Shown here piece by piece: positions 6,387-53,601 of a stretch of 64,000 nt of DNA (the first letter of the stretch is position 1; the number at the start of each line of letters is the position of its first letter). Where the stretch lies: the IMG/VR virus record IMGVR_UViG_3300046059_000013, one strand, 5' to 3'. Source of the stretch: a virus. The notes beneath the pieces were generated by a model, which did no database searches, had not been told where the DNA came from, and saw only the letters and a program-made list of their open reading frames with translations. A program made the position numbers and the translations under genes.

Positions 6387-6597
6387 CCTAGGGGAGTAAA
6401 TTCGGGAAACGTTGATATGGTGGAGGGTGCTTTGTTCGCTGAGCGGGATGCCCCCGGGCCGGGGGTCTCTGTAAAGAAGTTCCCGGTTTCCAACACCCTC
6501 CCGCAGGGTGGAACCCGACACCAGGCCGCAAGGCCGGTCGGAGAAAGCCCCACCCCCGAACATGGGGAGAAGGTCACCACACAGGGCTTATGAAGGA
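6387..6597 (+). ncRNA. Candidate stand-alone TnpB omegaRNA / non-autonomous IS605 derivative
   Basis: 6545-6577 AAGCCCCACCC..TGGGGAGAAGGTCAC matches the right end at 53357-53390. Hairpin-rich non-coding gap with an upstream GAAACGTTGATA promoter-like motif. The left boundary is a guess. Confidence 0.55.
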
Positions 6598-6615
6598 CCG
6601 GAAGCGCTGTGGGTT

Positions 6616-8133
6616 TTAGCTGCCGAACACGTCGCCGCTATCGTACTCAGCAACATCCTCATCCCACTCAACCTTGCAATCGTCAAAGTAAAGCGTGAGC
6701 CCGTCCGAGCCCGGGACCCCGTTTTGCGTGGCCTCAAACTCGTACACATGGTCCTCCTCCAACTCCTCCGTAAAGCCGAGCGTTTCCCAACTGGTCGCGG
6801 AGCTCGTGCCTGAAGCCTCGTTAACGAGCGTCGAATCTGTCACGTCCCGCAACCCCAAGCGAGCTTGCTCACCGCCTGAGCCGCCTGTGCGAGCCCGCAA
6901 GCTCACGCTCCACTCCGTAGTGCTGGACGGGTTAAACAACTGCTTCAAACCCTGGTCCCCCGTAGTGGTGCCGCTCGTCACCACTTTGGCACTAATGTCC
7001 CCATGGTCCACGATGGACGTCTCACTCGAAAACGACGCCCCCGCCCCCGTGTTCGCATCCCACTCCGGCGGCTCACCATCGCTGGGATAATCTTCGTAAC
7101 TGGCATTATCAAGCAGGTTCCCAGACCCGTACTCCGCCGTCGAAATCAGCGTGACAATCCCCTTCACACCGCCCGCCGTAACCCGGTTCAACAGCTTCTC
7201 GATGCTGCTAAGCTCATCATCGAACGGTGACGCAAACCCGAGGCCCTCAAGCAACGGTTGCGGAATGCTGAACTCGATGCGCCGCTGACGATACGCACCA
7301 TCGTTCGGGTCCTTGTTCAACGTGACCGCAATATCCCCCTCGCTCCCGCCAAGCGCACTCTCGACGAAGCCTTGAAGCTCCGTGACCGTGACACCGCCAA
7401 TTTGCTTCGCAATCTCAAGTTTAAGGTCCACGAGCAAGCTCTCGTCACTTTGCCCCGGGTCCCGGAACACGTTCCAGAACTTGGCGGTCTTCGTGAGCGC
7501 GGGCCCGGTTTGATCCACGACAGCCTGGTATTCTCGGAGCTCGTCCCGCGAGCGCTCCCACTCGGCGAAGAACCCTTGCCGGAGCACGCGCATCAGTTTC
7601 TCCCAGTTGGAGCCGCCCACGTACAAGTCCTCCATGTCGAGGAGGTTCAAGTGCGCTATCCAGTCTTCCTTGCCGCGGGTGTTGTAGAAAATGGTGGTGT
7701 TGGCTTGGTCTGTCGTGTTCAGCGCGTTCCCGGTGAGGTCCCAGGCCTCGTCGCTGGCGATGAACCAGTCCGTGTCAATCTCGTGAAGGTGATACGGGTG
7801 GTCATCCACGTCCACATCGTTGTGGTCCTTGCTGAACTCGAGGTTGCTGTCCGCGTCCACGAAGCGCACGATGCCCGAGGCGAAGAGTTGCAGCTTGGAA
7901 TCGTTGCCAAGGTCAAACTCCAACAGGTCCGTGCGAGCGGTCGTGACCGTCCAGTCAGTAAAATCGTCAACAAGCAGGGTCTTCGTTTCAGCGGGCGGTC
8001 CGCGCGTGATGATGATTTCGCTGTTCCCTGGGTCTAGCGTGTAGTCGGTGCCGGCCCATGCTCCAACGTGGATTTGGAGTTTGTTGGTGCCGGTGTCGCC
8101 TTCGTTAAAGCGGCGGGCCTCGTATTGAGCCAT
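6616..8133 (-). CDS. Baseplate wedge-like protein with C-terminal carbohydrate-binding-like domain
   Basis: Directly after baseplate J. RVTAGGV resembles P2 gpI-type wedge proteins; NASYE...W beta-rich tail. Confidence 0.55.
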   Translation of the reverse strand: MAQYEARRFNEGDTGTNKLQIHVGAWAGTDYTLDPGNSEIIITRGPPAETKTLLVDDFTDWTVTTARTDLLEFDLGNDSKLQLFASGIVRFVDADSNLEFSKDHNDVDVDDHPYHLHEIDTDWFIASDEAWDLTGNALNTTDQANTTIFYNTRGKEDWIAHLNLLDMEDLYVGGSNWEKLMRVLRQGFFAEWERSRDELREYQAVVDQTGPALTKTAKFWNVFRDPGQSDESLLVDLKLEIAKQIGGVTVTELQGFVESALGGSEGDIAVTLNKDPNDGAYRQRRIEFSIPQPLLEGLGFASPFDDELSSIEKLLNRVTAGGVKGIVTLISTAEYGSGNLLDNASYEDYPSDGEPPEWDANTGAGASFSSETSIVDHGDISAKVVTSGTTTGDQGLKQLFNPSSTTEWSVSLRARTGGSGGEQARLGLRDVTDSTLVNEASGTSSATSWETLGFTEELEEDHVYEFEATQNGVPGSDGLTLYFDDCKVEWDEDVAEYDSGDVFGS

Positions 8134-8141
8134 GTTAAGGG

Positions 8142-8264
8142 TTAGCTCTTGTCTTCGTACGCGAACAGTTTGCGACCCGGCGGCAGGATGAGGGGCTCCC
8201 GCGTTTCCGTGACGTACGCGCTCGTGCCAAGCCGCTCCAAGAGGCTTTCCGTATCAAAGGCCAT
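8142..8264 (-). CDS. Small hypothetical protein (40 aa)
   Basis: ATG-started ORF filling the gap between two baseplate genes. Confidence 0.4.
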   Translation of the reverse strand: MAFDTESLLERLGTSAYVTETREPLILPPGRKLFAYEDKS

Positions 8265-8269
8265 GAAGG

Positions 8270-10036
8270 TCACACCTCGTTGATGGTTACGCTAACGTCC
8301 GTGTTCACGTCCTCAACCTGGAACCGTTCACCGGGAGCGGGTTCAAGGTTCACCGTGTTGCCCGAGTCAAGGTTCGCAGGGTCCGACGTGTTACTCTTCC
8401 GGTCGGCGCGCATGGTCGTAATGTCCTTGACACCCGCAAAATTATCCGGGTCCATGATGAGGCTCTCAATACGGTTCAAAATGAGCTCGTCATCAAACTC
8501 AAGCCCGGTACGATTCACACCGTTCGTGTCCGTGCCCCCGATGTAGTCCACGATAACGTCCTTGACCTGGTCTTCGTCCCCGCTGAACTGCTCCAGGGTT
8601 TCAAGTGTGACGCTCACCGTGACGAACACATCAACCGGCTCTTCCCAGTAGATGGTTTTCTCGCCCTCGCGGTCCTCAGCCGTTTCCTTGTTCCTCCCAT
8701 CCAGCGCGATGCCCCCAGCCGACGTGTCAAGCAATTGCTGGGCAAGCTCTTCACCATCGAACTCGCCGCTTGCGAAGATGCGAACCGCGCCTGGGGGAAC
8801 CCCGGCTAGCACCCTGTTGTTGATGCTGGTAACCGTATCCCCGGAGTTGTCCGTGGTTTTCGTCACCCAGGACCCGCTGTCCTCGAACTTAACGCTGCCA
8901 ACGCTGAACTTGGTCGTACTGCTTGAGGCCTCGAACTTGCCGCTGCCGCCCGTGGCCTCGAACACGCTCCAGTACGTCGTGTCCGCGCTCAGGTACTTGC
9001 CCTTGTCGTGCTTGCTGCTCGTGTCCTTTGTACCGTCCAGGTCAAAGCCCGTGGATTCGAGGCGGTCATGCACGAGCGCACCGCTTGGCTCGTCGTTCGC
9101 GGAGTCGTGCGTTTGAATGCTCACCGTGCCGACAAGGTCGCTGTCCACGGCAAGCTGGTACGTGAAGTCCTGGTGAAACCTGCGGTTGTCCGGGGTGAAC
9201 TTGTGCGCTACTTTCGTAACGTTCCCGCCGCTAGACACTTCCACCGTTTGCGACCCGTCTTCTTCACCGTCGAGGAGCGTGTTCTCGGTTTGCGCGTCGT
9301 ACGGGTCGTTGTTCTCGATGCCGTCCGTGCTCTCAACGCCGTTCACTTCGTCCGCGGCGCGGATGAGCCCGCTTAGGCTAGCGCCGGGCTGGGCGGCTCG
9401 CTGGCGACGGACGCGGCGCTTGACTTCCGGGTCTGTTTCACGGGCTTGTCCGCCTGTGAACCCCTCGTCGTTGTTGAAGCTGTCAATCTCTTGCGCGAAG
9501 CGTTGGCGAACGCTGGAGTCAATGTCCACGTCCACGATTTGCCCGTTCGTGATGTTTCCGTCCGTGCCGAGGAACGTGGCTTCCACGTCCACAACGCTCG
9601 TGTTCGTGGTGCTCGGTGCGTCGGGAAGCGTCACGCTTCCATCCTGGTCGTAGCGACGGTCGTTCGCGTCGATGAACGTGAGCGACCCGTCCGGGAAGAA
9701 CGGGTCGTAATCGTTCTTGTTCAGGCTGTTCGTGAGTGTGAGGTTCACCTTGCCAGAGGCTTTTGTGGCCTGCTCGCGCTGTTCCCCGATGAGGTCAAGG
9801 TGCTTGTCAAGTGCGTTCTGCGTGGCATCCGGCGGGAGCATTTGCCGGAAAATGTCTTCGTGCTCGTTCTCGGCTTCGGCGAGCGTGAGGGCAACGGCTT
9901 CAATAATGGCTTGCGCGGGGTCGGCTTCGGAGAGCGCGTGGTCCTCCCCGAGCTGGGTTTCCACAGCGTCCTGGAGGTCTTGAATAACTTCGCCGAGAAC
10001 CCGGGACCGGTACACGCCATCATCCGTAATAGGCAT
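8270..10036 (-). CDS. Baseplate J-like protein
   Basis: A..ALD.....G..R..AT.ASG.V; N..GFTGG...ETD....R; GAS..GL; GAVRIFASG. Confidence 0.9.
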   Translation of the reverse strand: MPITDDGVYRSRVLGEVIQDLQDAVETQLGEDHALSEADPAQAIIEAVALTLAEAENEHEDIFRQMLPPDATQNALDKHLDLIGEQREQATKASGKVNLTLTNSLNKNDYDPFFPDGSLTFIDANDRRYDQDGSVTLPDAPSTTNTSVVDVEATFLGTDGNITNGQIVDVDIDSSVRQRFAQEIDSFNNDEGFTGGQARETDPEVKRRVRRQRAAQPGASLSGLIRAADEVNGVESTDGIENNDPYDAQTENTLLDGEEDGSQTVEVSSGGNVTKVAHKFTPDNRRFHQDFTYQLAVDSDLVGTVSIQTHDSANDEPSGALVHDRLESTGFDLDGTKDTSSKHDKGKYLSADTTYWSVFEATGGSGKFEASSSTTKFSVGSVKFEDSGSWVTKTTDNSGDTVTSINNRVLAGVPPGAVRIFASGEFDGEELAQQLLDTSAGGIALDGRNKETAEDREGEKTIYWEEPVDVFVTVSVTLETLEQFSGDEDQVKDVIVDYIGGTDTNGVNRTGLEFDDELILNRIESLIMDPDNFAGVKDITTMRADRKSNTSDPANLDSGNTVNLEPAPGERFQVEDVNTDVSVTINEV

Positions 10037-10437
10037 TACCTGGGGCCTCCAGTTCGCACGTCGGTTGAAACTTGAATCGTGTCCCCGTTGGCGAGGGTGA
10101 CGCTAGCTGAAACGTTTGCAACCCGGTTGATGCGGTCGTTCCTGTTCATGCGCACGGTCACGTTGTCCACGCTGTCCACCGCCGCTTCGCGCTTAACCTC
10201 GCTTCGAACCGCGATGCGCAAGAGTTGCCGACTGAACGAGCCGGTGAGCACGAAACGGGGAAGCCCCATCTCGGGGTGAAGCGCGTTGTCGTTTCGCACG
10301 GTGCCAAGGCGCACGCGGAGACGCTGAGCAACGGCTTCTTTCCCGTTGAGCGTGCGGAAGGTGCGGGCGCCGCTGTCGTTACGCTTGAGCTCAAGGTCAC
10401 CATCGCCGTCAATAGCAAGAGTCTCACCGTACGCCAT
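10036..10437 (-). CDS. Baseplate wedge / sheath-initiator (gp25/DUF2634-like)
   Basis: GDL..G.EAVAQRL.VRL......HPEMGLP pattern, upstream of J. Confidence 0.8.
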   Translation of the reverse strand: MAYGETLAIDGDGDLELKRNDSGARTFRTLNGKEAVAQRLRVRLGTVRNDNALHPEMGLPRFVLTGSFSRQLLRIAVRSEVKREAAVDSVDNVTVRMNRNDRINRVANVSASVTLANGDTIQVSTDVRTGGPR

Positions 10438-10448
10438 TCACTTTTCTC

Positions 10449-10907
10449 CTAGGCTTCGACTTCTTCACCGACCTCTCGCGTAGCGCCGAGCCAGTCCTCG
10501 TACTGGTTGCGCTCGCCCTCAAGCTCGCGAATCTCTTCCCGAACCTCGTTAATCTGCTCGATAAGCTGCTCCGGTTCAACATTCAGGTCGCTGGCCACGT
10601 CGTTGCGAATCGTGCTGATTCGCTCCTGCAACATCTCGCGCTCCTGTTGGATGCGCTCGAGCTCCTCGCGGGCCTCCGCTTCCCCGATTTCGTCGTTCTC
10701 GCGCACTCGCTGGACAGCGTTCTCGGCACCGTCCAGCTCGTCAAGGTCGTCCTGGACACCCTCGTTGATGACGCGCTGCTCGGCTAGGGTTTGAAACTCG
10801 TTGAGTTGCTGGCCTAGTTCCTGGTTCTTGTCGCGCTTTTCCTGGATGTGCCCTGTCACGTCGCTGATGAGTTGCTGGAGAACGTCCTCGTCCATGACCT
10901 TGGTCAA
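10449..10907 (-). CDS. Acidic coiled-coil protein
   Basis: Continuous heptad pattern, E/Q-rich. Confidence 0.65.
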   Translation of the reverse strand: MTKVMDEDVLQQLISDVTGHIQEKRDKNQELGQQLNEFQTLAEQRVINEGVQDDLDELDGAENAVQRVRENDEIGEAEAREELERIQQEREMLQERISTIRNDVASDLNVEPEQLIEQINEVREEIRELEGERNQYEDWLGATREVGEEVEA

Positions 10908-10980
10908 GGCGTATCGCCTCGCGAGAGCGTAAGGGTTCTGAGGGTTTTAACAACCCGGAAAGGGCGGGGGCTTTCCACGG

Positions 10981-11715: not shown

Positions 11716-11717
11716 GA

Positions 11718-14857: not shown

Positions 14858-14860
14858 GGT

Positions 14861-17553: not shown

Positions 17554-17841
17554 AATTACCACCTCTCGTGGTGTGGCTTTTGCCCGCCACTTCTTGGACT
17601 CGCAGGCGCGCTAACGGGGTGGGGCCTGCGTGGTTTTTCAGAGAACGGTTCCCGAACCATGGAACCTTTCACGCGATAAGAGGGCGTGGTGGTGACATGG
17701 TTGCACCTACTACTGGCACCCTCGAGCAAGCGAGGAGAGAGACAGCGAGCAGACACCATGCCAGGCTCTACGCTCGTGTTCGTTGCGGACTCCCCTAAAA
17801 GGCGAAGAACGAGGGGATGGGTTTCCAAGTCCCAGCAAAGA

Positions 17842-19025
17842 CTATTCTTCTTCCCACTCCATGTCCTCTTCGCTCGCGTCCTCAATAGGCTCGCCGGTCC
17901 ATGGGTCGATGCCGTCCTCCAGCATCGTTTGCGCGTTCTCGTACTCTTCATCGTCTTCATGCACGGGCCCGTGCTCCTCGCGGTCCGTCTGCCTCGTGGG
18001 CTCCTGGGACAAGCCCGTCATGTTCCCTTCCGACCGCTTCACGCGCGTATTCTTCTCCCTGTCCGACACAGGCTCGCGAACCTCGCCCACGCGGCGCGAA
18101 ACCGGGTCCAGGTCCTCTACTCGTCGCTGGATGCCGCCGGCTCCACCACGCTTCCCTCGTCCTCGTTGCTCTGGGTGCTCGAGAGGTTCTGCGTCTTCCC
18201 CTCCGAGCGCGAAGACGGCGACGTTCCCGAAACTCCAGTAGAGGTCTTCGAGCCGCTCGGTGCGCCGCCTTTGCTGGCCCCTTCGGACGGCCCGGTAGAA
18301 CCGGAGGAGCCTTTGCTTGTTCCACCAGCCGCCTTGTCGTTCAAGGCTTCGCTTGAGGTCTCGAGGAGAGATTGAATACGCTCGTCCGACAGCGTGGAGG
18401 ACGTCTGTTGGCGAGTGGTCTGGCCAGTCGCCATCCCTTGCAGCGCCGCGAAAAAATCCTGGTTGAACCCCAACCAGCCAAGCAGTCGATACTCGAGCGT
18501 GGTCCGGTACGAGGGCGGCATCGTCCAGAACGCATCCACGTGGTCAAGTGGGTACTGCTTGTTGTCCTCGTCCTCGTACTGGGCATGTTCGTCTTCGGAC
18601 AGGTGGTTACTAAACACGCGGAACGCTTGCGGCTTCACGATGGTGGCGCGGAGCGCCGTCTCGATGGCTTGGTTCCATGTTTCCTCGTCTGCGCCTTTCG
18701 CCTCGGCCAGGCTCACGAGAATGGCGTCGGACTCGTCCGGTTCCTCCACGATAGTTTCGATGAGGATGGGCGTGCCTTGGTCGTCCACGCCTGCGGGAAT
18801 CTCCCACGTTTCGCGAACCTTGCCGCTGTCCTCATCCCGCGTGGATGCCGCCTCGCGCCAGTCGTCAACGACGCGCCCGGTTTGCTGTTCTTGGGCTTGG
18901 CGGAGCTGTTCCTCGATTTCGTTGTCGCTCATTCCCGAGTCTCGGAGTTCGGCGACGAGCGTTTCGAGGGCGTCCTGGTTGAAGGCGTCGTTGAACGCTT
19001 CGGGCTCGTCCTCGGGCGGCATCAA
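17842..19025 (-). CDS. Tail assembly chaperone GT-like product via -1 frameshift at T TTT TTC (18456-18450)
   Basis: Canonical slippery heptamer. The -1 frame is open to 17842 and reads protein-like (DVLHAVGRAYSISPRDL...RLLRFYRAV). Confidence 0.75.
18117..19025 (-). CDS. Tail assembly chaperone (G-like)
   Basis: Between tube and tape measure; low-complexity Ser/Gly tail after NQDFF. Confidence 0.75.
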   Translation of the reverse strand: MMPPEDEPEAFNDAFNQDALETLVAELRDSGMSDNEIEEQLRQAQEQQTGRVVDDWREAASTRDEDSGKVRETWEIPAGVDDQGTPILIETIVEEPDESDAILVSLAEAKGADEETWNQAIETALRATIVKPQAFRVFSNHLSEDEHAQYEDEDNKQYPLDHVDAFWTMPPSYRTTLEYRLLGWLGFNQDFFAALQGMATGQTTRQQTSSTLSDERIQSLLETSSEALNDKAAGGTSKGSSGSTGPSEGASKGGAPSGSKTSTGVSGTSPSSRSEGKTQNLSSTQSNEDEGSVVEPAASSDE

Positions 19026-21426: not shown

Positions 21427-21535
21427 CTCGCTCTCGGTGACTCATTCTATCAGAGCGGAATAAAAAGGGAGCGAACCAGTCTGGCCCGGGCCTAGCTGTT
21501 TCGCCGCTTCTTCCGTGGGTTCAACCCCTAGTGGG

Positions 21536-21570
21536 GGAACCATACGGCTTTAGCCGTGGGAGGATGTCAG
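21536..21570 (+). mobile_element. Orphan IS605-type right end (hairpin + GGGAGGATGTCAG)
   Basis: 30/35 identical to the reverse complement of 43602-43636, with a compensatory stem change. Confidence 0.7.
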
Positions 21571-22499
21571 TCGTCGGTGAGGAGGATGTTGCCCTCATCG
21601 CTGAGGAGGATGTTGCCCTCATCGGTGACGAAGGTGTCGGCCCCAAACTGGAAGTCCACAGTCCCCTCGTCAGCACCTTCCCCAGCCCGCATAATGAACC
21701 GACCAGCAAGGCGCTTGTCTTCAGGAGGCTGTGCGTTCCGATTCCGGCGAAGCACGACCTGCATCATGCCCGTGACCGTGGACTCGCCTTCCTGCACTCC
21801 GATGTCGGTTAAATCGCGAATGTCCTCGAGGTGATATGCGCCATCTTGCAGGCTGTGGCCGCGGTAGAAAGCGGCAAGGTCAGAAAGGAAGTCCGTGGTC
21901 TCCTCAAGCACGTCGCTCTTTGAGTAGTCGATGCTCGCGTTCGCGTTGCTGGACGGGACCTCACTTCCGTGAATGATGAGGTTCATCATCCGGGTCTCCC
22001 ACGAGATGCGCGTCTCGCTAACGAGACGATGGTTGTAGTCAATCGTGAACTCCGTGTCCTCGTCCGGCGTGTCGCCGCCGTCGAGCCACTTGATTGCATG
22101 AGGAAGCGAACGCAGAGCGTTCGTGAAAATCTCGAAGTCATAGTCCTCGGTGAAGGTGTGATTAGAACCGTTCAAAGTGCCGGAGACGCTGTTAATGGAG
22201 GAGATGTCCTTTTCGTGCACGTCGTAAACGTCCTGCGTGGACGTGTACGTGGTGGTCGTGGTGTCTTGCTTGTTCTTGGAGACGTTTTTGCCGCGTTTGC
22301 TTTTCATCGAGCGCTTGATGTTGCCTGGTTCGATTTCGATGAGGGGAACGCTTTCGCTGGACAGGTCGTCGTGGTCCACGTTCACTTCGGTGCCGTCGAC
22401 GAGGGTAAGGGGGAGTTTGTCCCCGTTTTGCATTTGCACGGGGTCGGCTTTGTCGTGGAGGAACTCGCCGAGCGCTTTGATGGCGTTCGCCGTGACCAT
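21567..22499 (-). CDS. Tail terminator/completion-like protein with inserted Ig-like domain
   Basis: Immediately upstream of the sheath; central beta-rich insert (GSNHTFTEDYDF...PDEDTEFTIDY). Confidence 0.5.
   Translation of the reverse strand: MVTANAIKALGEFLHDKADPVQMQNGDKLPLTLVDGTEVNVDHDDLSSESVPLIEIEPGNIKRSMKSKRGKNVSKNKQDTTTTTYTSTQDVYDVHEKDISSINSVSGTLNGSNHTFTEDYDFEIFTNALRSLPHAIKWLDGGDTPDEDTEFTIDYNHRLVSETRISWETRMMNLIIHGSEVPSSNANASIDYSKSDVLEETTDFLSDLAAFYRGHSLQDGAYHLEDIRDLTDIGVQEGESTVTGMMQVVLRRNRNAQPPEDKRLAGRFIMRAGEGADEGTVDFQFGADTFVTDEGNILLSDEGNILLTDD
21578..21625. repeat. 24-nt tandem duplication (DEGNILL(S/T) x2)
   Basis: TGAGGAGGATGTTGCCCTCATCG(C/G) twice. Confidence 0.95.
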
Positions 22500-22591
22500 C
22501 TGGTTCGTGGTTCTTGCTTCGAGCGTTAAAACCCAGCGATAAGCGCCCGGAAGCCAAACCCTTAACCATGGACGGTTTCCTGGCCTGGCAG

Positions 22592-23710
22592 ATGCGCGTA
22601 GCGCTCTTCGGCCAAGTCTGGGGCCGCGTCTCCTACGCCCTCCTCAACAGAGCCTACGCCCTCGGCCTACACAATCAAGGCCACGACGTTCGCGTCATTC
22701 CCGCCGGAAGCATCGACGCAACACAGTACCACGACGACGAAATGCGCCACGTTGAAGAACTCTGCGTAAACAGCAAACCCGAAGCAGACGAAACCGTTCG
22801 CGAGTGGAGCGACGCCCGACTCCTCGTCCTCGTCCCCACCGCCGTGCGCTACCTGGACTCGCACGACTGGCCCGCCAACGACTGGGCCATTCACACCGTG
22901 TGGGAAACAGACCGCGTGCAACAAGGATGGGTCCCCCTCTTGAACCGGTTCAAGGCCACCATCACCGCAACCACGTGGAACCAGCACGTGTTCGAGCGAC
23001 AGGGAGTCACGAACGTAACCAACCGCGTGGCTCCAGAAGGCATCGACCCAAGCACTTACTACCCTGAGCACGAGAGCGACGACCAGCTCACGTTCGTCAC
23101 CGTCGCCGACTTCAACGCGCGCAAAGGCCTCCGCCAACTCCTCACCACGTTCGCGCACGTGTTCGGCGGCGGGAAAGACGCCAAGCTCCTCGTGAAAACC
23201 TGGTCGATGCGGGGCGAGGATATTGACGAAACCGCTGAGCGTATCAACCAGTTCGCAAGCGACTTCGGCGCCGACATTCGACCCATTACCACGCCCTTGC
23301 AACCCGAGGAGATGCGGCGCTTCTACTGTCGCGGCGATGCGTTCGTGTTGCCCACGCGCGGGGAGGGATGGTGTCGCCCGGCGATGGAGGCGCTCGCGTG
23401 CGGTACCCTCCCAATTGTGACGGGGTGGAGCGCGCACGAAGAATGGCTCAACGAGGACTACGCGCGGTTCCTAGACTACGAACTAACGGAGCCCCGGCGG
23501 CGTGTGGCGGGGTACAAGGCACCGCAGAAGTGGGCGGTCACGAGCTCGAAGGACCTGGCCGAGGCGATGGCCGACGTAGCTAACAACCGGGAGGGTGTTG
23601 CTGAGACTGCGCGCGAGGGGTCGGGTTGGGTTCGTGAGAATTGGAACAACGGGCACGCCGCGGAGAGGTTGGAAGACGCGCTGGTGCAAGTTTTTGAAAG
23701 TGGAACTTGA
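22592..23710 (+). CDS. Glycosyltransferase, GT4 (GT-B fold)
   Basis: APEGIDP, RKG..LL..F, FVLPTRGEGWCRPAMEALACG (Ex7E). AAACCCTTAA lies about 27 nt upstream of ATG 22592 (leaderless start inferred). Confidence 0.9.
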   Translation: MRVALFGQVWGRVSYALLNRAYALGLHNQGHDVRVIPAGSIDATQYHDDEMRHVEELCVNSKPEADETVREWSDARLLVLVPTAVRYLDSHDWPANDWAIHTVWETDRVQQGWVPLLNRFKATITATTWNQHVFERQGVTNVTNRVAPEGIDPSTYYPEHESDDQLTFVTVADFNARKGLRQLLTTFAHVFGGGKDAKLLVKTWSMRGEDIDETAERINQFASDFGADIRPITTPLQPEEMRRFYCRGDAFVLPTRGEGWCRPAMEALACGTLPIVTGWSAHEEWLNEDYARFLDYELTEPRRRVAGYKAPQKWAVTSSKDLAEAMADVANNREGVAETAREGSGWVRENWNNGHAAERLEDALVQVFESGT

Positions 23711-34610: not shown

Positions 34611-34703
34611 CGCTTAATCGTGGTTTAGGGGTAATGGGCTTAAAGGGGGTGGGTTCGTGGACGGGGCTGGCAAGTTTCCACGACTTCATCTGTGGGTGGG
34701 TTC

Positions 34704-34933
34704 CTAGTTGTCGCGTTCGTCCCACCAGTATGGCATCCTGTCGCGGTACATTTCAGAGAAGTTGAAAGCCATGCAGAGTGCAAAGAACAACACGCCTAAA
34801 ACCAGGAGCGACGCAATCCAAAGCGGCGACAACACCCAAACCCACGACCACTCGATAAAGCCCGTCAGCTTCAACGCGACAAAAACAATTGTTAGGAGGG
34901 CGACGAAAAGGCCCCACGCCCGCTACTCCCCAT
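34704..34933 (-). CDS. Small phage membrane protein (LLTIVFVALKLTGFIEWSWVWVLSPLW), 5' frame break
   Basis: Recognisable widespread phage motif. The ATG (MGSSG) is one frame off the conserved body at G-runs. Confidence 0.6.
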
Positions 34934-42190: not shown

Positions 42191-43582
42191 GTGGCTTCCT
42201 CCCCGGCCTTCACGCCGGGGCTTCCTTGTTCATTCACGAGCACCAACCCCCTGAGTGGGTTTGCAACCTCTCGTGTCCAAAGGCGTTGATTCCCCACAGC
42301 CCGTGGGTACTGGTTCGTCGTTGACTTCAAGTTTCTTGATGCCCCGTTGCCGAATCTCACGCGCCGCGTTCTGGTCGCGACCCATCGTGAGCCCGCACTC
42401 AGGGCAATCATGCTCGCGCTGCGACAACGGTTTCGGGCTCCGATGCCCGCACCGGTGACAATCGCTCGTCGTGTGCTTGGCGTTCACGCGGACAAGATGT
42501 CCGCCGTGCTCTTCAAGCTTGTACTCCAAGAACCGGAACAGGGTCCCCCACGCGGCATCATGCACGCTTTGGGCGCGGGAGCCTTGGGTGAGTCCCGTGA
42601 GGTTGTCCTCGACGGCGACCACCTGGTACTCCTCGGCCAGGTACCGTGCGACCTTGTGAAGGTAGTCCCTGCGCTGGTTCTTGATTGTGCGATGCAGTTT
42701 GGCAACCTGTTCGCGTTGCTTGTGCCAATTGTTGCTGCCTTGTTCCTTGCGGGACAAGTGTCGTTGTTCTCTCTGAAGCTTCTGCAAGGACTGTTCGAGG
42801 TGACGAGGGTTGGGAATCGTGTCCCCGTTGCTGAGGGTTAACAACTCCGTGAGGCCCGCGTCCACGCCCATCACGCCGCCTTCGGCCTGGGGCTTGGCGA
42901 GGTTCTCCTCGGGCACGTCGAAGGTGATCAATGCCCACCAGTCGCCGTGTCGGTCTTCTTTTACCGTGCATGTTTTTGCCTTGCAGTTTTCATCCAGCCA
43001 CGGCGGCTTGTCCTCGTGGAACGCTCGAACCCATCCAAGCTTGGACAAGTACACCTCGCCATCCCGGTACTTAAACGAGCCGTGTCCACTATTCCGGGAT
43101 TGGGGATACGTCATCGAGCGGTACGCTGCGCGTCCCTTGTAGCGCGGGTACTCGTGGTTGGTGTCGGGGTTGAAGAAGTTCTGGAAGGCTCGGTCCAGGC
43201 GCTTCACCACGTTTTGCAAGACCTGCGCGGGCGGGTCCTGAAACCGTGGATGGTCCTGCTTGAATTGAACCAATTGGGCCTGTTGCTCGGTTTTGGAGAT
43301 GCTTTCTCCGTACTCTTTCCACAGGAGTTCTCGATGTTCAAGGCACAAGTTGTACAGTGTCCGACATAGGCACAGCGTCCAGCCCAACTCCTCCTGCTGG
43401 TCTTGCGAAGGGTACAATCGGAGTTTTAGGGTGCGTTTGGGCATTGGGCGTCGTGCGGATATACGCAAGGGGGTTGTGGGGTTTGGGTCTTTTGGTCAGA
43501 GTGTGCGTGGTGCCATGCTCCTTGTTCCGACCCCTTCGATTCATCCCCAACCTAAAGAACAGGAACCCTTTTGACGGAAGAG
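42191..43582 (-). mobile_element. IS605-family element, tnpB only (IS-1)
   Basis: Right end CCCCGGC..GCCGGGGAGGAAGCCAC. Left end TTAA|CTCTTCC...TTTAGGTTGGGGATGAATCG resembles the left end of IS-3. Confidence 0.75.
42230..43444 (-). CDS. tnpB: TnpB RNA-guided nuclease
   Basis: RuvC D (GVDAG), E (AVED), D (RDQNAA); CxxC zinc ribbon. Confidence 0.95.
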   Translation of the reverse strand: MPKRTLKLRLYPSQDQQEELGWTLCLCRTLYNLCLEHRELLWKEYGESISKTEQQAQLVQFKQDHPRFQDPPAQVLQNVVKRLDRAFQNFFNPDTNHEYPRYKGRAAYRSMTYPQSRNSGHGSFKYRDGEVYLSKLGWVRAFHEDKPPWLDENCKAKTCTVKEDRHGDWWALITFDVPEENLAKPQAEGGVMGVDAGLTELLTLSNGDTIPNPRHLEQSLQKLQREQRHLSRKEQGSNNWHKQREQVAKLHRTIKNQRRDYLHKVARYLAEEYQVVAVEDNLTGLTQGSRAQSVHDAAWGTLFRFLEYKLEEHGGHLVRVNAKHTTSDCHRCGHRSPKPLSQREHDCPECGLTMGRDQNAAREIRQRGIKKLEVNDEPVPTGCGESTPLDTRGCKPTQGVGARE

Positions 43583-43800
43583 TTAAACCCATCGCCCCGA
43601 ACTGACATCCTCCCACGACTTAAGTCGTGGGGTTCCACGGTCACAGACCGTGCCCCCGACTCCGGCAGGTTCCCGTCGTCGGCGGTTTCCTTGGCGGCTT
43701 CAAGTTCTTGCTCGGCGGCTTGAACGTGTTCGAGAGCTTCCTCGTTCACGCTCCCGGGCCTTTGGTGAAGACGTGTTGCTCGTCGCAACGAGGACACCAC
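43552..43800 (-). CDS. Small protein whose C-terminus runs through the orphan right end
   Basis: Helical N-terminus, then EPHDLSRGRMS (typical tnpB-end translation). Confidence 0.45.
   Translation of the reverse strand: MVSSLRRATRLHQRPGSVNEEALEHVQAAEQELEAAKETADDGNLPESGARSVTVEPHDLSRGRMSVRGDGFNSSVKRVPVL
43602..43636 (-). mobile_element. Orphan IS605-type right end
   Basis: GGAACCCCACGAC-TTAA-GTCGTGGGAGGATGTCAG with no tnpB upstream. Confidence 0.75.
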
Positions 43801-43869
43801 TTTATGACATAGTTCCTAGGCGCGGGAGAGGTCAAAGCCATCGCCCTGAAGATAGTGCCGGGGGCAACC

Positions 43870-47450: not shown

Positions 47451-47669
47451 TTACTCTTCTTCGTCCTCGAAAACAATAGGCCCGTGGTTCCAATCTTCAA
47501 GGACAACGTGCTCGTGGAACGAGCACAGTCGACAATCCACACTTGGGTCCACCTCGCCGTCTTCAGCCACGTCGTGAACGAGGTATGCGGGAATGTCGCA
47601 AGCGGGACACCGCATCCTCACCCCGACATTCGTCAATTCCCAATCCTGGATTTCGACGTGTTCGGACAT
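47451..47669 (-). CDS. Zinc-finger micro-protein
   Basis: CPAC...C..C.FH. Confidence 0.65.
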   Translation of the reverse strand: MSEHVEIQDWELTNVGVRMRCPACDIPAYLVHDVAEDGEVDPSVDCRLCSFHEHVVLEDWNHGPIVFEDEEE

Positions 47670-47703
47670 GAAAGCGAAAATGCCTCGTGTTCGGGGTTGC
47701 GCC

Positions 47704-47880
47704 CTATGCTCCTTCTTGGGGGAGTTCCCAACTGAAATCGTCCGCGTGGTCTCGCTTTAGCTTTTCCTTGATGCATCGTCGGATGAAGCTGGACCGGTTC
47801 TCGTATCCTCGTGCTTCTTCAACGGCTGTGAGGGTTTCTTCGCGGATGCTGATGCCAACGGTCGTAGTTGGGGTGGGCAT
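47704..47880 (-). CDS. Ribbon-helix-helix (CopG-like) transcription regulator, 58 aa (not in ORF track)
   Basis: TTVGISIREETLTAVEEARGYENRSSFIRRCIKEKL. Confidence 0.8.
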   Translation of the reverse strand: MPTPTTTVGISIREETLTAVEEARGYENRSSFIRRCIKEKLKRDHADDFSWELPQEGA

Positions 47881-48067
47881 TGTGCTCTCGTTCCTGAAAG
47901 GTTCCTTTTTGTTGAAAAGGTTTCGGCGTCAAAGGAGTAGGGATGAGGGTGGCGGTCCGGGCAACACGCCCGACCGCCGAGGTGGAATCCCCCATCCCAT
48001 CCGTTGGGAACCGGTGGCTCTCCACGAGCCAGCATCGACAACCGTAGTGGTGTAAAGAAGTCTTCGG

Positions 48068-48391
48068 ATGCGAAATGTTGATAGTGGCCCAGGCAACTGC
48101 GAGCGTGATGAGCCGCCCAACCATTTACTTCGTGCGGCGCGCGGTCGAGCACACGATGCGAGAAAAGGAAGATTTGGAGACTGGTGTGCAGGCGGCCAGC
48201 CGTTTTCTCGACCAATACCTGGAGGGAACATTTTGGGATTCGTCTTAGTCGTTTCTGCAGGCACGCTCATGGTAGGGTTGTGGTTTCTCATAAGAAAGGG
48301 GCTATACCAGGCGGAGTTCTGGCTCGGGTACGTCACAGCCAGCTTCCTTATCATTCTGCTGGGTGTTCTAGAGGTGCTGTTCCTTGGCTGA
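48068..48391 (+). CDS. Small membrane protein (true start probably downstream)
   Basis: Two TM segments in the C-terminal half. Confidence 0.45.
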   Translation: MRNVDSGPGNCERDEPPNHLLRAARGRAHDARKGRFGDWCAGGQPFSRPIPGGNILGFVLVVSAGTLMVGLWFLIRKGLYQAEFWLGYVTASFLIILLGVLEVLFLG

Positions 48392-48531
48392 TTTCATCAC
48401 CGATAACGTACATCTGGGAGACGCGCAAGACGCACAGAAATGGCACGGGATGCGACTTGCCGTTCACGAAAGCGCCTGGAGCGTCCCGCAAACAAACCGC
48501 TATTGGATTCCGATAGCTTACCGCGCGAACG
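48384..48531 (+). pseudogene. Dual-specificity-phosphatase-like N-terminal fragment truncated by IS-2
   Basis: ITDNVHLGDAQDAQ resembles DSP starts; the IS right end abuts 48531. Confidence 0.4.
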
Positions 48532-49850
48532 GTAAACTACCCGTCCCGAGCTTGAGCGGGCTCGGAACGGGCTTTGCCTGTGTTCTCCCCCTCTAACGAC
48601 GCATCATGAGTGGCGTCGCACGAGAAACACTCGTTCGGGGTCATCGTTCCAGACGTTAAGGCCAGTTTACCGTGGCCCGTGCCCACGGACGACTTTTGGT
48701 CCATGGACACAAGGTACTTGTACCCGATTGACTTAGCAGCGTTGTAGTCCCGGTCGTTCTCGTACCCGCACGCCTGGCACGAAAACCAACGGTCCTCAAG
48801 GTTCTCTTTGCTGGTGTGCCCGCACCGGCTGCACGTGCGCGAAGTGTTCACGGGGTTCACCTGTTCAACCTGGATACCCAAGGCTTGGGCTTTGTACTCT
48901 ACGTACTCCACGAGTTGCCGGAACGCCCACTCGTGGTAGCGTTTCCCGCCTTGCAATTGGTCGCGGATGTTCGTGAGGTCCTCGAACGCGATTACGTCCA
49001 CGCCTTGCTCGGCGGCGTGGTCTACAAGGCGTCGGCTCACCACGTGCAGGTGGTGTTGGTTCCAGCGGGCCTCGCGACTGCTTAAGCGTTCAAGGGTGCA
49101 GTGGGCGCTTTGCGTGCCTGTTTGTTGGAGGCTGGCGCGCGTTTTCTCGTATTCTTCCCTGCGGTGGTTCAGCGGGCCGCCGGTGTGGAAGTGGGCGGTG
49201 CTGGTGGTGGCGAGGTTTTCGATGCCGAGGTCCACGCCCAAGACCGTGGGGTGTTGGGGCGTCTCTGCATCGGTTGTCTCGCGCTTCATGACGACGTGCA
49301 GCCACCAGTCGCCGTCCCGGTGGTGCAGCGTGGCGCCACCAGGCTCGTAGTCCTCGCTTAACAGGTAGTCGCCGTGCGGGGTTCCTTCGGGTTTGTTGGA
49401 GAGGTGGAGTTGGGCTTGGATTCTTCCGTTTGTGGTGGCTAGGCTTACTGTTTTGTTTTGGAGTTGAATTGTGTAGCAGCGTTGGTCGTAGTTCACGGTT
49501 GCACTCGTGAACCTGGGCTTGCCGGGGTTGTGGCCTTGGCGGCGGCGTTCCACGCAAGCTTTGAGGGCTTCTGCCGCTGCGCTGCGAGCCTGTGTCACGT
49601 GGTTGGCGTGGAGGTCTGAGCTGGTTTTGATGGGGTGGTAGGTGGCGTCGTGGAGTTCCGACTCGCGTGCCTCCAGGTTGCTGTTGTCGTTCCAGCCTTC
49701 GTCCACGACGCGGTTTGCTGCCGCTCGGTACTGGTCCAGCGTGTCCCAGAGGTCGTCTTTGGCGTCGCTGGGGACGGTGAGTCGGATTCGGACGGTGCGA
49801 CGTGTCTCTGCCACCAGAACACTCATGGTGGTGGGCCTACATGGTTCCTT
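48532..49850 (-). mobile_element. IS1341-type element (IS-2); left end not resolved
   Basis: Right end AAAGCCCGTTCCGAGC...GCTCGGGACGGGTAGTTTAC. Confidence 0.7.
48537..49826 (-). CDS. tnpB: TnpB, haloarchaeal IS1341 type
   Basis: RRTVRIRL start; GVDLG, FEDL, DRDYNAA; CSRC..CQAC. Confidence 0.95.
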   Translation of the reverse strand: MSVLVAETRRTVRIRLTVPSDAKDDLWDTLDQYRAAANRVVDEGWNDNSNLEARESELHDATYHPIKTSSDLHANHVTQARSAAAEALKACVERRRQGHNPGKPRFTSATVNYDQRCYTIQLQNKTVSLATTNGRIQAQLHLSNKPEGTPHGDYLLSEDYEPGGATLHHRDGDWWLHVVMKRETTDAETPQHPTVLGVDLGIENLATTSTAHFHTGGPLNHRREEYEKTRASLQQTGTQSAHCTLERLSSREARWNQHHLHVVSRRLVDHAAEQGVDVIAFEDLTNIRDQLQGGKRYHEWAFRQLVEYVEYKAQALGIQVEQVNPVNTSRTCSRCGHTSKENLEDRWFSCQACGYENDRDYNAAKSIGYKYLVSMDQKSSVGTGHGKLALTSGTMTPNECFSCDATHDASLEGENTGKARSEPAQARDG

Positions 49851-49911
49851 TGGCCGATTCCTCTCCGACCCAACCCTAGCGGGTTGGGAAAGAGTTTCCT
49901 CGGCCGATAAG

Positions 49912-50457
49912 ATGAGCAACATGGAGAGACTTGTAGCACTCGACCTTGAAACCGGCGGCCTTGACCCCTCCGAGCACTCCATCATCGAAATAGCTGCGTA
50001 CCATCCCGAGAGCGGGGAAACGATACAGCGCCTTGTCCGCAACGAAACGTACCATGTCACGGACCAGGCGATGGACGTGCATGGATACAAGATTCGCGAC
50101 CTCGCCAGCGCAAACTACGTCGGCATCGTGGACGAGGAAGTAAAGAATTGGCTCGACGAAACCGTTGACGGGAACGCCATCGCGGTAGGAATGAACGTTT
50201 ACTTTGATTTGGCTTGTTTGGGGGAGCACATGCCGCAAACGGCGAGCAGGTTCAGCCATCGCACGCTGGATGTTACTTCCCTTCAGTTCTTCCGAGATTG
50301 TTGTAGAGGCCAGCGTCTTGGAGCATCCGCAAGCTACTTCAAGAATCACGTCTTCGAGGACGAATACACGCACTCGGCGCTTGACGACGCGAAGGTCGCG
50401 TGGAAGGTTGTCGAAGCACTCATCAGCGACGTTGACAAAGAGGTGTTTCCATCGTGA
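49912..50457 (+). CDS. DEDDh 3'-5' exonuclease
   Basis: ALDLETGG, NVYFD, HSALDD. Confidence 0.9.
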   Translation: MSNMERLVALDLETGGLDPSEHSIIEIAAYHPESGETIQRLVRNETYHVTDQAMDVHGYKIRDLASANYVGIVDEEVKNWLDETVDGNAIAVGMNVYFDLACLGEHMPQTASRFSHRTLDVTSLQFFRDCCRGQRLGASASYFKNHVFEDEYTHSALDDAKVAWKVVEALISDVDKEVFPS

Positions 50458-50951
50458 AGCACGCTGTTGTTGCGGGTCCGCCGGGTGTTGGCAAGTCGAC
50501 CACGCTGGCCCACCTCGACACCCGCCCGATGGACGTAGGCCGCGTGTTCGAGGACGTGAACGGGCTTGTAAGAGAGGCGGAGCGCGACAACCGCTACGCC
50601 CGCTTCGCCAGCGAGGTTGCTAAGGAACAGTCCACGTTCCTTGAGGTGGGTTGCATCCAGCCACGCACGACGTGGCGCTTGGTTTTCGATGCGCTTGAGG
50701 GGGACGTGGTCGTGGTGGGGCTCGACGCGACGGAGGCGGCGTGCGTGGAGCGGGTGCGTGGGCGGGGTGACGCGGGCATGGTGCCGGTTGTCAAGGCGGC
50801 GTGCTCGACGGACCTCAGCAAGAGTCTTGCCTGGGCTCGGGGCCGTGACGACGTTGTTGGAGCGAAGTATGTTTTCAGGGGTGTGCTTGGGGAGGAGGAG
50901 GTTGCTTCTACGGTTGCAGGATTTCTAAGACATCATGGGCTTTCAGTTTAA
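50454..50951 (+). CDS. P-loop kinase-like NTPase
   Basis: GPPGVGKST; ACVERVRGRG lid. Confidence 0.8.
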   Translation: MKHAVVAGPPGVGKSTTLAHLDTRPMDVGRVFEDVNGLVREAERDNRYARFASEVAKEQSTFLEVGCIQPRTTWRLVFDALEGDVVVVGLDATEAACVERVRGRGDAGMVPVVKAACSTDLSKSLAWARGRDDVVGAKYVFRGVLGEEEVASTVAGFLRHHGLSV

Positions 50952-51003
50952 GCAAAGGGGGTCGTGGGGTTCAAGTGCTGTCCGCGCGAACGTGAAAGCC
51001 TCC

Positions 51004-51108
51004 ATGACCACAGTTTGTCCCAACTGCGGAGCAGAGCTCGACAGCGACCGTCCCTGCGCCGCGTCCATGTGCGACGGATGCGGCCACCGCCCTTCGTGCC
51101 ACGACTAG
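51004..51108 (+). CDS. CPxCG zinc micro-protein (34 aa)
   Basis: MTTVCPNCG...CDGCG. Confidence 0.55.
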   Translation: MTTVCPNCGAELDSDRPCAASMCDGCGHRPSCHD

Positions 51109-51146
51109 CGAAACTTTCAACAACGACCAGTCGCGTTGCGTGAGCG

Positions 51147-51524
51147 ATGGAAATCGAAGTCGTCCTCAAATTTCCCGGGAACGAAGTGTCTTTCGACACG
51201 CGAACCGTAGCCATCTGCGACAACCTCAAGGAAATGGAGTTGTTTCTCGACAAACTCCAAAACGGGAAAATACGGCACAGCTCAACGGACTGGCAACTCA
51301 CCGGCGAGTCCTATTGGCGGACAATCGCTGACAAGGAACGTGCAAGAGTGCAACTTTCAGTCGCTAAGGGCGACAAGGTCGCCATCAACGTGCCTCGGGA
51401 CAGTCTGGTCGGCGCCGAGAACGCTCTCCGAACTATCCTAAACCAGGAGCAACTGCCTGCCCTTTCCAACGAGAAGCACCTTGAAACCGTCCTCGACGCT
51501 TTGCAAGAGGAGGACCCCCGGTGA
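51147..51524 (+). CDS. Hypothetical protein
   Basis: ORF downstream of a promoter-like motif. Confidence 0.65.
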   Translation: MEIEVVLKFPGNEVSFDTRTVAICDNLKEMELFLDKLQNGKIRHSSTDWQLTGESYWRTIADKERARVQLSVAKGDKVAINVPRDSLVGAENALRTILNQEQLPALSNEKHLETVLDALQEEDPR

Positions 51525-51734
51525 GCGAGAACGAGGGATTCGTGCCTACGTTGACGCTTGCGTGCCAGTCGTTTGGTTGCGAGGAGGAGACGCGCGTGAC
51601 GGATGCGCTCGAGGAGGCCACGTGGCGCTGTCCCGAACACATTAGCTTCTCCTGCGCGAAGCCCCCGCCCTTCAGGGTGGGGATGAAGCGCCCAAACACC
51701 TATACGTACAAGGGTCTTTCCATGCGGCAGAGCC

Positions 51735-52139
51735 GTGGACTACGATACGAAGTCGGGAAGCCACTCCATCTACGCTCTCCAGTACCACCTCGTGTGGTGC
51801 ACCAAGTATAGGGAACTCCTGATGCTTCCCGAGGCCCGGGATGCCCTGAAGGAGAAGATCCACGATCTGTTTGAACAGTCTGGCATAGACATCCTCAACA
51901 TTGAGGCGGATGCCGACCACGTGCACGTTCTCTTCCGAGGAACGCCGACGGTGACGCTGTCCCGGGTCGTCAACAAGATGAAGGGGGCCACGAGCAAACA
52001 CCTTCGGTCGCAGTTCCCAGAGCTGGGTGCAAGGGATCACCTCTGGAGTCCTGCCTACTTCCTAGCTACGACGGGGCAGGTCACGCTGGACCGGTTGATG
52101 GAGTATGTGGACGAGCACGCCGAGGAGCGTGAAGCCTAG
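51735..52139 (+). CDS. tnpA: TnpA Y1 HUH transposase
   Basis: YHLVWCTKYR, DHVHVL, LWSPAYF. Confidence 0.95.
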   Translation: MDYDTKSGSHSIYALQYHLVWCTKYRELLMLPEARDALKEKIHDLFEQSGIDILNIEADADHVHVLFRGTPTVTLSRVVNKMKGATSKHLRSQFPELGARDHLWSPAYFLATTGQVTLDRLMEYVDEHAEEREA

Positions 52140-53350
52140 TGCCCATGCGCACCCTAGAACTCCGGTTGTATCCGTCCCAGGACCAGCACGAGGCGATGGG
52201 GCAAACGCTGGGCTTGTGTCGGATGCTCTACAATCTCTGCAAGGAGCACCGCGAACTCGCCTACCGGGAGTACGGGGAGAGCGTGTCCTGGTATGAGCAG
52301 AAGCGACAGTTGGTTCAACTCAAGAAGGACCACCCTATGTTCCAGGACGTGCATAGCCAAGTGCTCCAGAATGTGACCGAGCGCGTGGACACCGCGTTCC
52401 AGGCGTTCTTCGACGGTCGCAACGACTACCCAAACTGGAAGAGCCGCAGCGACTACCGCTCCTTCACGTACCCGCAGGAGGGCGGGTTCCGGTACCAGGA
52501 TGGCGAAGTGTACCTGTCGAAGATTGGGTGGGTGCGAGCCTTCCACGAAGACAAACCACCCTGGTACGACCCCGACACCTGCACACCCAAGACCTGCACG
52601 GTGCGCGAGGAACGGTTCGGGGACTGGTGGGCAAGCATCACGTTCGACGTGCCCGAGGAGAATGTGGTGCGTGAGCCCGCGGACCCGGGCCTCGTGGGCC
52701 TCGACGCGGGCCTCACCACGCTGGCCACGTTGAGCGATGGCACCAAGATCACGAATCCACGCCACCTCAAGGAGTCCCAGGAACGCCTCGCCAAGGCGCG
52801 ACGGGACCTGTCACGCAAAGAACGAGGAAGCAACAACTGGCATAAGCAGAGGCAGCGCGTAGCGAAGCTCGAACGCAGGGCCGCCCGCAAACGTCAAGAC
52901 CACTTGCACAAGGTGTCTCGACACCTGGCCGAGTCCTACACGTGCGTCGCCGTCGAGGGAAACCTAGCGGGACTCACCCAATCAGAGGACCACGCCCAAG
53001 CCGTTCACGACGCCGCCTGGGGCACCCTGTTCGAGTTCCTGGAGTACAAGCTCGATGAACACGGAGGCCGGCTCGTTCGCCTAGAGGGCGAGAATCAGGC
53101 CTACAGCACCAAGGACTGTAGTGAGTGCGGGTACCGCAACCACGATTTGTCCTTGGAGGACCGATCATGGACCTGCCCCGACTGCGGGGCAATGCACGAT
53201 CGGGACATCAACGCGGCCAGGAACCTAGAGCAACGCGCACGCACCAAGCTCCAAGACGAAGGAACCGACGTACCCATGGACCGTGGGGAATCAACGCCTT
53301 TGGACACGAGAGGTTGCAAACCCACTCAGGGGGTTGGTGCTCGTGAATGA
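52139..53350 (+). CDS. tnpB: TnpB RNA-guided nuclease
   Basis: GLDAG, AVEG, RDINAA; CSEC..CPDC. Confidence 0.95.
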   Translation: MPMRTLELRLYPSQDQHEAMGQTLGLCRMLYNLCKEHRELAYREYGESVSWYEQKRQLVQLKKDHPMFQDVHSQVLQNVTERVDTAFQAFFDGRNDYPNWKSRSDYRSFTYPQEGGFRYQDGEVYLSKIGWVRAFHEDKPPWYDPDTCTPKTCTVREERFGDWWASITFDVPEENVVREPADPGLVGLDAGLTTLATLSDGTKITNPRHLKESQERLAKARRDLSRKERGSNNWHKQRQRVAKLERRAARKRQDHLHKVSRHLAESYTCVAVEGNLAGLTQSEDHAQAVHDAAWGTLFEFLEYKLDEHGGRLVRLEGENQAYSTKDCSECGYRNHDLSLEDRSWTCPDCGAMHDRDINAARNLEQRARTKLQDEGTDVPMDRGESTPLDTRGCKPTQGVGARE

Positions 53351-53601
53351 ACAAGGAAGCCCCACCCTTCTAGGGTGGGGAGGAGGTCACCGAGTTTGTT
53401 CCTGCTCCGGGCACGAGCAAGGCCGAAAGGCTGGGTTGCAAGTGTGAGCGCGTGGAAGGCGTGGCGAATGGGCCTCTCTTTGTTGCTTTGGGTTGCAAGA
53501 TGCATTCGAGTCAAGCTGAAGATTGACTTCTTCTCCGGTCTCTTCTTACGGGTCGGAGAGACCCGCAAAGTTGATGCATTAACAACCGCCTGGCAACAAG
53601 G

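Follow-up and report, generated by a model that had tools for sequence, protein, structure and literature searches.

The window analysed here, a stretch of 64,000 nucleotides from the virus record IMGVR_UViG_3300046059_000013 (IMG/VR), carries three tnpB genes, one tnpA gene and three solitary right ends (REs) of the IS200/IS605 type, that is, terminal hairpins with their tails and without a tnpB, which we designate o1, o2, and o3. These orphans are very probably non-functional, 5'-truncated relics of IS200/IS605-family elements or of tnpB-less derivatives, known as palindrome-associated transposable elements (PATEs), and judging from their sequences they appear to stem from two source lineages: o2 and o3 from a common haloarchaeal type in which GGAACC, a hairpin and GGGAGGATGTCAG follow one another, and o1 from a relative of the two resident elements IS42 and IS52. 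A first-pass annotation of the same DNA had instead suggested that the orphans may form a dispersed set of guide cassettes loaded in trans by the resident TnpB proteins, a proposal at odds with the present results, since o2 and o3 are short fragments without a scaffold of the IS42/IS52 type, the stems of o1 and o2 are decayed, o2 is absent in three relatives, and no target flanked by a transposon-associated motif (TAM) was found in the window or in IMG/VR. The terminal hairpin and its tail are the most conserved and most recognizable piece of an IS200/IS605 element and outlive the rest of it; they are therefore no evidence for a guide RNA unless a scaffold of ~100 nt is present upstream.

The REs were sought on both strands and without filters by means of a covariance model (R2) trained exclusively on the terminal 40 nt of eight elements linked to a tnpB. 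R2 yielded exactly three REs devoid of tnpB, namely o3 at 43602-43641 (-; 38.9 bits, E 5e-8), o2 at 21531-21570 (+; 23.7 bits, E 5e-4, with two non-canonical pairs), and o1 at 6538-6577 (+; 20.1 bits, E 4e-3). It also matched the left-end (LE) hairpin of IS52 at 51663-51688 (+; 21.3 bits, E 2e-3), while the matches ranked below were the reverse strands of these same hairpins and then noise from E ~0.3 up. The covariance model from tnpB-linked REs that the first-pass annotation had called for thus recovers all three of its clear orphans, at 6545-6577 (+), 21536-21570 (+) and 43602-43636 (-), which are genuine. Its two weaker candidates fared otherwise: the one at 34667-34704 (-) scored at noise level (R2 7.9 bits, E 7; nhmmer 0.9 bits on the opposite strand) and is at most an unrecognizably decayed palindrome, and the one at 17661-17696 (+) matched none of the models R1, R2, and R3 and lies within the open reading frame (ORF) 17556-17960 (-). 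The count thus comes to five or six ends for three nucleases, which falls short of the many more junctions than nucleases that had been announced. As for the location of the orphans in intergenic gaps of the morphogenesis region, it holds for o1 and o2, which lie in the tail module, but not for o3, which adjoins IS42 in a region of nuclease genes and small ORFs.

A scaffold-only model (R3) found the IS42/IS52-type scaffold in IS42 and IS52 only, with 106 and 103 bits, and returned nothing significant upstream of any orphan in the window; a scan for LE motifs gave IS42, IS52, and one unrelated site, with none beside the orphans. All three orphans are accordingly without a left end as well as without a tnpB, and upstream of the last two hairpins no sequence is common to o2 and o3, or to either of them and the resident scaffolds. 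Thermodynamic z-scores do not discriminate in this matter, the genuine IS52 omegaRNA standing at -0.74 and o1 at -0.43; the o3 region folds unusually well (z -3.18).

Delimited by R2, nhmmer, and identity to pNMAG02, o3 spans 43602-43675 (-), perhaps to 43695, and corresponds to the 3'-terminal ~74-90 nt of a haloarchaeal 275-nt PATE/IS1341-type family, of which it holds the last two hairpins and the GGGAGGATGTCAG tail. Against a profile of the 275-nt PATEs from Natrialba and Salinirubellus, nhmmer aligned o3 with positions 205-277 of 277 only (74 nt, E 8e-18); it is 95% identical to pNMAG02 over 40 nt, and this 40-mer matched 82 plasmid records, mostly haloarchaeal. The 275-nt plasmid elements have the same penultimate and terminal hairpins and the same tail as o3 but are full length: their LE hairpin precedes ATGAATCC, and their scaffold starts with GTACC-stem-1, whereas o3 lacks the first ~200 nt. 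In the Natrialba magadii plasmid pNMAG02 and in a Salinirubellus plasmid (L149 and L150, each at 1766-2040), this tnpB-less element is 82% identical across the two genera and is a candidate for a mobile stand-alone omegaRNA carrier in cells. Within the virus, o3 precedes the left end of IS42 by 19-20 nt, and we considered whether it could be that left end; this was rejected, the true LE starting after TTTAA at 43581 and aligning with the LEs of two relatives (L054 and L052), and the tail of o3 being of the RE type. The gap between o3 and IS42 (43582-43601, -), which is also the would-be guide flank of o3, is matched at 17 of 20 nt by 43835-43854 (-), 250 nt upstream. This second site lies ahead of a small zinc-ribbon ORF, and the 20-mer resembles a promoter element repeated in the virus.

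A comparable picture emerges for o2 (21504-21570, +), delimited by R2 and by plasmid matches of 60-68 nt, which corresponds to the last ~66 nt, at the 3' end, of a type of haloarchaeal element with tnpA and tnpB. It is 88-95% identical over these 60-68 nt to the tnpB 3' ends and REs of Halorubrum, Halobacterium, and Haloterrigena plasmids, and in a complete tnpA+tnpB element carried by a Halorubrum megaplasmid its counterpart is the final ~48 nt of tnpB together with the RE; that element (L151, Halorubrum ezzemoulense), whose last ~66 nt are ~90% identical to o2, has the same tnpA-tnpB organization as IS52. On the 275-nt PATE profile, nhmmer covered positions 242-277 only, that is, the last 36. 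The stretch upstream of the o2 hairpin was also tried as the leader of a left end, as expected of a mini-PATE, and this was rejected, since haloarchaeal tnpB elements normally end on the 3' side with this very stretch. In the 5' arm of the terminal stem, two substitutions relative to the relatives of o2 have turned one pair into a mismatch and another into a wobble pair. The stem differences between o2 and o3 (GGC/GCC vs GAC/GTC), which had been taken for compensatory changes, are inherited from separate source lineages (L151/L152 vs L149/L150). As regards its surroundings, o2 ends in a TCA that supplies the TGA stop codon of the convergent gene 21567-22499 (-), and its would-be guide flank is part of a 24-nt tandem coding repeat of that gene. 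These repeats form its C-terminus (21571-21640) and read roughly GNILL[ST]D[DE]; the o2 tail, when reverse-complemented, is similar to their ACATCCTCC core. A cellular orphan of the o2 type occurs on the Haloterrigena sp. KLK7 plasmid NZ_CP149788.1 (L152, 1601-1661), within a 275-nt gap, where its end overlaps with the stop codon of a polysaccharide deacetylase gene that converges on it, the same arrangement as in the virus. At the o2 site, upstream of the sheath gene, all three viral relatives found (L057, L059, and L060) lack the element and have a promoter-like TTTAAA region instead.

The position of o2 raises the question of whether the orphans could have been exapted as structural or regulatory hairpins on viral mRNAs, for example as 3'-end stabilizers, terminator-like elements, or insulators that separate late genes. 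Such a role would suit an element that directly follows a gene, provides its stop codon, and precedes the sheath promoter, and it would suit the well-folding o3 region. Nevertheless, o2 and o3 differ in their orientation relative to transcription, no T-run follows the hairpins, the relatives manage without an element at the o2 site, and there is no evidence of conservation, so that we hold this role to be highly improbable.

The RE type of o2 and o3 is itself well represented outside of the virus. It lies ~90 nt past tnpB in one viral contig (L016) and past a tnpB remnant in another (L021), and its motif is multi-copy in several archaeal genomes (15 places vs 0 control matches). In cellular DNA, it ends either full tnpA+tnpB elements or tnpB-less elements of 215-275 nt, which comprise an LE hairpin, a GTACC-stem-1 scaffold, and an RE, and hence are PATEs with an omegaRNA-like body. 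Comparable derivatives were described in Haloquadratum walsbyi, in which repeat-mediated deletions of the core shrink a 1500-bp tnpB element to 52 bp, some remnants keep only C-terminal coding pieces, and mobile elements are prone to insert next to one another (Dyall-Smith et al. 2011, PMC3119063). They share several features with the viral orphans: both are haloarchaeal in type, have IS200/IS605 ends with near-terminal palindromes, and arise by core deletion; the Haloquadratum element HqIRS71 keeps part of the TnpB C-terminal coding region, as do o1, o2, and o3; and the position of o3 beside IS42 parallels the clustering of mobile elements in Haloquadratum. The difference is that PATEs have both ends and can be multi-copy and mobile, whereas the orphans of the window have only the right-end side and are single copies in a virus.

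On this difference turns the possibility, mentioned as a fallback by the first-pass annotation, that the orphans are intact mini-elements of the PATE or repetitive extragenic palindrome (REP) kind, spread in trans by TnpA. A terminal-only PATE of 52 bp derived from ISHwa23 appears mobile in Haloquadratum (PMC3119063), IS52 carries an intact TnpA, and the o2-type orphan of the Haloterrigena plasmid abuts a convergent stop codon in the same manner as o2. Yet near-terminal palindromes at both ends, the hallmark of PATEs, are replaced in the orphans by RE-type modules only: none of them is preceded by a leader or by a hairpin of the LE type with ATGAAT after it, and the 5' flank of each hairpin is of the RE type (GGAAC). 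REPs with their associated tyrosine transposases (RAYTs) typically exist as many near-identical intergenic copies, while here there are three copies of two lineages that are not near-identical; for a RAYT gene, no search was made beyond the single Y1 tnpA found. Moreover, the o2 and o3 hairpins are unlike the IS52 hairpins that its TnpA would recognize, and the orphans are unique, with boundaries that fade into the flanking sequence. An interpretation as intact mobile mini-elements is thus very doubtful, but with its PATE-like derivatives of IS200/IS605 the fallback is close to the correct class of explanation, PATEs being the nearest known kind. The orphans are rather at the decay end of the known PATE/IS200-IS605 spectrum, being neither intact PATEs nor complete omegaRNA genes.

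For relics of this sort, the probable course of events is that IS200/IS605-type elements invaded the viral genome from haloarchaeal hosts and then lost their left end and core by deletion, the remains surviving in intergenic gaps, presumably because a packaging-limited virus would tolerate insertions only there and trim them. Such relics would not transpose, having no LE for TnpA, and would not guide TnpB; if ISDra2 is taken as the model, o2 and o3 would lack the pseudoknot partner expected ~100 nt upstream of the guide. The ISDra2 omegaRNA has a 116-nt scaffold in which positions -5 to -3 pair with -103 to -105 in a pseudoknot (Nakagawa et al. 2023, PMC10097598). As in the resident TnpB systems of the window, its RNA derives from the RE and overlaps the tnpB 3' end, with the flanking DNA as guide; its scaffold sequence is unrelated to those of the window, and the 116-nt and pseudoknot requirement is carried over solely by analogy. 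A complete scaffold in this sense, of ~116 nt or more with a pseudoknot partner ~100 nt upstream, is found in neither o2 nor o3, and fragments of 66-90 nt would be expected not to fold correctly, since the pseudoknot needs nucleotides -103 to -105.

The case of o1 differs, as this orphan is related to the resident family. For the scaffold of that family, the 3' ends of IS42 and IS52 were aligned with those of four metagenomic relatives of TnpB52 (54-65% identity), which gives six family members and a scaffold of ~121 positions with 34 pairs, 12 of them with compensatory changes. IS42 and IS52 have a common RE module, GGAAG, a 9-bp hairpin, and then GAGGAxGxCAC. o1 spans 6447-6577 (+; R2 20.1 bits, R1 21.6 bits, R3 only a local match of 9.5 bits) and is a diverged remnant of ~130 nt related to this family, with a GGGGAGAAGGTCAC tail. 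Its terminal module matches that of IS52 at 11 of 11 and 14 of 15 nt on either side of the loop, when the hairpin itself is broken, the 3' arm being shortened to 5 bp with a 10-nt loop. By nhmmer, homology is confined to 6542-6577 (36 nt). Farther upstream, at 6451-6465, the site of the local R3 match, a stem-1-like hairpin has the spacing from the RE end that the family would lead one to expect; a closing stem also occurs, with an unrelated interior. A search of plasmids with o1 gave no match, and the neighboring 505-aa protein, which was to serve for a comparison of synteny, has no homologue on record.

It is with o1 that the reading of the orphans as trans-acting guide cassettes is at its most plausible, namely that one or more of them would be transcribed as stand-alone omegaRNAs for a resident TnpB and would direct it against competitors, relatives free of the insertion, or the host. 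The concept of a trans-acting omegaRNA is not new in itself, since PATEs "often encode omegaRNAs" that would need TnpB in trans (Meers et al. 2023, PMC10055086), and full-length tnpB-less elements with LE, scaffold, and RE do exist on haloarchaeal plasmids. In the window, the family-type tail of o1, its stem-1-like hairpin at the right distance, and its ~130 nt of structured RNA are in keeping with such a function. In addition, the scaffolds of IS42 and IS52 share an identical run of 81 nt (42217-42297, -, and 53283-53363, +; 94 nt at 97%), while their tnpB genes are elsewhere 46-80% identical per 60-nt block, a pattern that points to gene conversion or recombination of the 3' ends and to guide RNAs that may be interchangeable, so that either nuclease could use either RNA. 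Against this, o2 (~66 nt) and o3 (~74-90 nt) have no upstream sequence in common, be it between the two or with the scaffolds of IS42 and IS52, and the window encodes no TnpB of their lineage; in both o1 and o2, the terminal hairpin is damaged; these two also run antisense to the late genes around them and would each require a promoter of their own; and o2 is absent in relatives. Finally, the 16-20 nt following each orphan do not recur beside a TAM anywhere else in the window, and a search of IMG/VR with these flanks gave only chance-like matches without a TAM. On balance, guide cassettes are very unlikely. The specific version in which o1 (6447-6577, with its guide at 6578-6597) would be a stand-alone, diverged omegaRNA gene, antisense in the gap between baseplate and fiber genes and loaded in trans by TnpB42 or TnpB52, we regard as very unlikely. 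Were it nonetheless true, the virus would carry one programmed target beyond its nuclease-linked guides, a step toward the separation of guide and nuclease in an archaeal virus, and o1, if expressed and loaded, would be a rare natural example of trans omegaRNA use in a virus.

Several points weigh against the conclusion that the orphans are mere relics. The scaffold of o1 may be diverged yet complete: by our estimate, ~2.4 stem-1-like matches are expected per window, when the expectation for the position seen in o1 is ~6e-4. A TnpB cognate to the o2/o3 type may sit outside the window, in the 27 kb by which the 91-kb contig exceeds it. The minimal scaffold needs are established for ISDra2-like systems only and not for the lineages of the orphans. 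And the relatives that lack o2 are distant (42-53% sheath identity), so that its absence at one site shows a lineage-specific gain and not neutrality.

In contrast to the guide-cassette proposal, the nuclease inventory of the first-pass annotation is confirmed, as three tnpB genes with an intact RuvC D-E-D and one TnpA are real. They are the tnpB of IS42 at 42230-43468 (-; Pfam, tblastn; probable start 43444), that of IS52 at 52139-53350 (+; Pfam OrfB_IS605 and Cas12f1-like_TNB, tblastn), and a third tnpB at 48537-50090 (-; tblastn, PHROG transposase, D-E-D columns), whereas the Y1 tnpA lies at 51735-52139 (+; PF01797, E 1.4e-33) and carries the HUH motif HVHVL and the catalytic-tyrosine motif SPAYF. 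In an alignment of the three TnpBs, the RuvC columns are invariant in all of them, the first Asp in GxDxG, the Glu in VAVEG, VAVED, or IAFED, and the second Asp in RD.NAA, which correspond to D189, E273, and D356. Together with the zinc-ribbon TNB domain, all three genes thus have the OrfB_IS605/RuvC features of a TnpB nuclease according to Pfam, PHROG, and structure alignment; TnpB52 aligns over 360 residues, catalytic motifs included, with ISDra2-type TnpB structures (PDB 8H1J/8EXA). TnpB42 and TnpB52 are 62% identical, and the third TnpB is 28-30% identical to both. The lineage of TnpB52 and TnpB42 is rare, with the four relatives mentioned above and all others at ≤41% identity, and a search of genome contigs with TnpB42 gave distant bacterial matches only. 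Its rarity sets the lineage apart from the ISH1-8/ISH12-type haloarchaeal IS200/IS605 elements, which were first seen on the halophage phiH1 (PMC3119063) and of which the L151 element is an example. The three intact TnpB elements presumably do what such nucleases ordinarily do, serving selfishly for homing to, or retention at, the sites where they themselves are inserted.

IS52 (51646-53390, +; Pfam; R1 135.5 bits; in-silico excision) is a complete IS200/IS605 element of 1745 bp. It has a Y1 HUH TnpA and same-strand subterminal hairpins at LE and RE, is without inverted repeats, and is inserted 3' of a short target motif without target duplication. Its left end directly follows TTAG, with the LE hairpin (51663-51682) 17 nt past this motif, and its omegaRNA scaffold (53269-53390) closes with the RE hairpin and then a 10-nt tail up to the RE end at 53390. 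When IS52 is excised in silico, its flanks fuse into one open frame of 98 codons, and the insertion is therefore recent and clean. IS42 (42191-43581, -; Pfam; R1 136.2 bits; LE alignment) is a tnpB-only element of 1391 bp whose left end at 43581 follows TTTAA, whose LE hairpin is decayed, its LE being alignable to those of relatives L054 and L052, and whose omegaRNA scaffold occupies 42191-42311. The TTTAA behind which it is inserted is a transposon target motif that coincides with a TATA-like box.

If every tnpB was said to end in an RE hairpin, this stands for IS42 and IS52, but not for the third tnpB, whose 3' end had no R2 match and is of another type, with an undefined RE boundary; a search for this right end through plasmid homologues gave no match either. 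The region in question is strongly structured (48355-48600, fold z -2.74), with a 13-bp hairpin across the stop codon and a 10-bp hairpin directly after it. The start of this gene is probably mis-called, since an N-terminal extension of ~88 codons matches nothing, and these codons of the ORF 48537-50090 are probably not translated.

Taken as a whole, the window documents how IS200/IS605 elements have repeatedly passed between haloarchaea and a tailed virus: its three live TnpB genes fall into two lineages, one filled site is clean and allows TAM and guide to be read, and the relics bear witness to two or more additional invasions. The virus, whose contig measures 91,022 bp (GC content of the window ~0.6), is contractile-tailed and of a haloarchaeal type, and its transposon ends match haloarchaeal plasmids. 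The window encodes a family-B DNA polymerase, baseplate wedge and hub, tape measure, sheath, and neck proteins, as well as a prohead protease that adjoins the capsid module or is fused with it. Close relatives were found neither by megablast nor by tblastn in the phage collection, nor was a relative of the sheath found in IMG/VR, the relatives at hand being the three distant metagenomic viruses cited above; Rfam and tRNA scans of the window found nothing.

Two further observations concern other parts of the window. At 62914-62960 (-), an LE-like motif consists of TTAC, ~17 nt, a GGCC-TTCG-GGCC hairpin, and GGATGAATCA, with no tnpB nearby, and may be a further relic or due to chance. Within the tail/virion module, a GT4-family glycosyltransferase gene (22514-23710, +) lies on the opposite strand.

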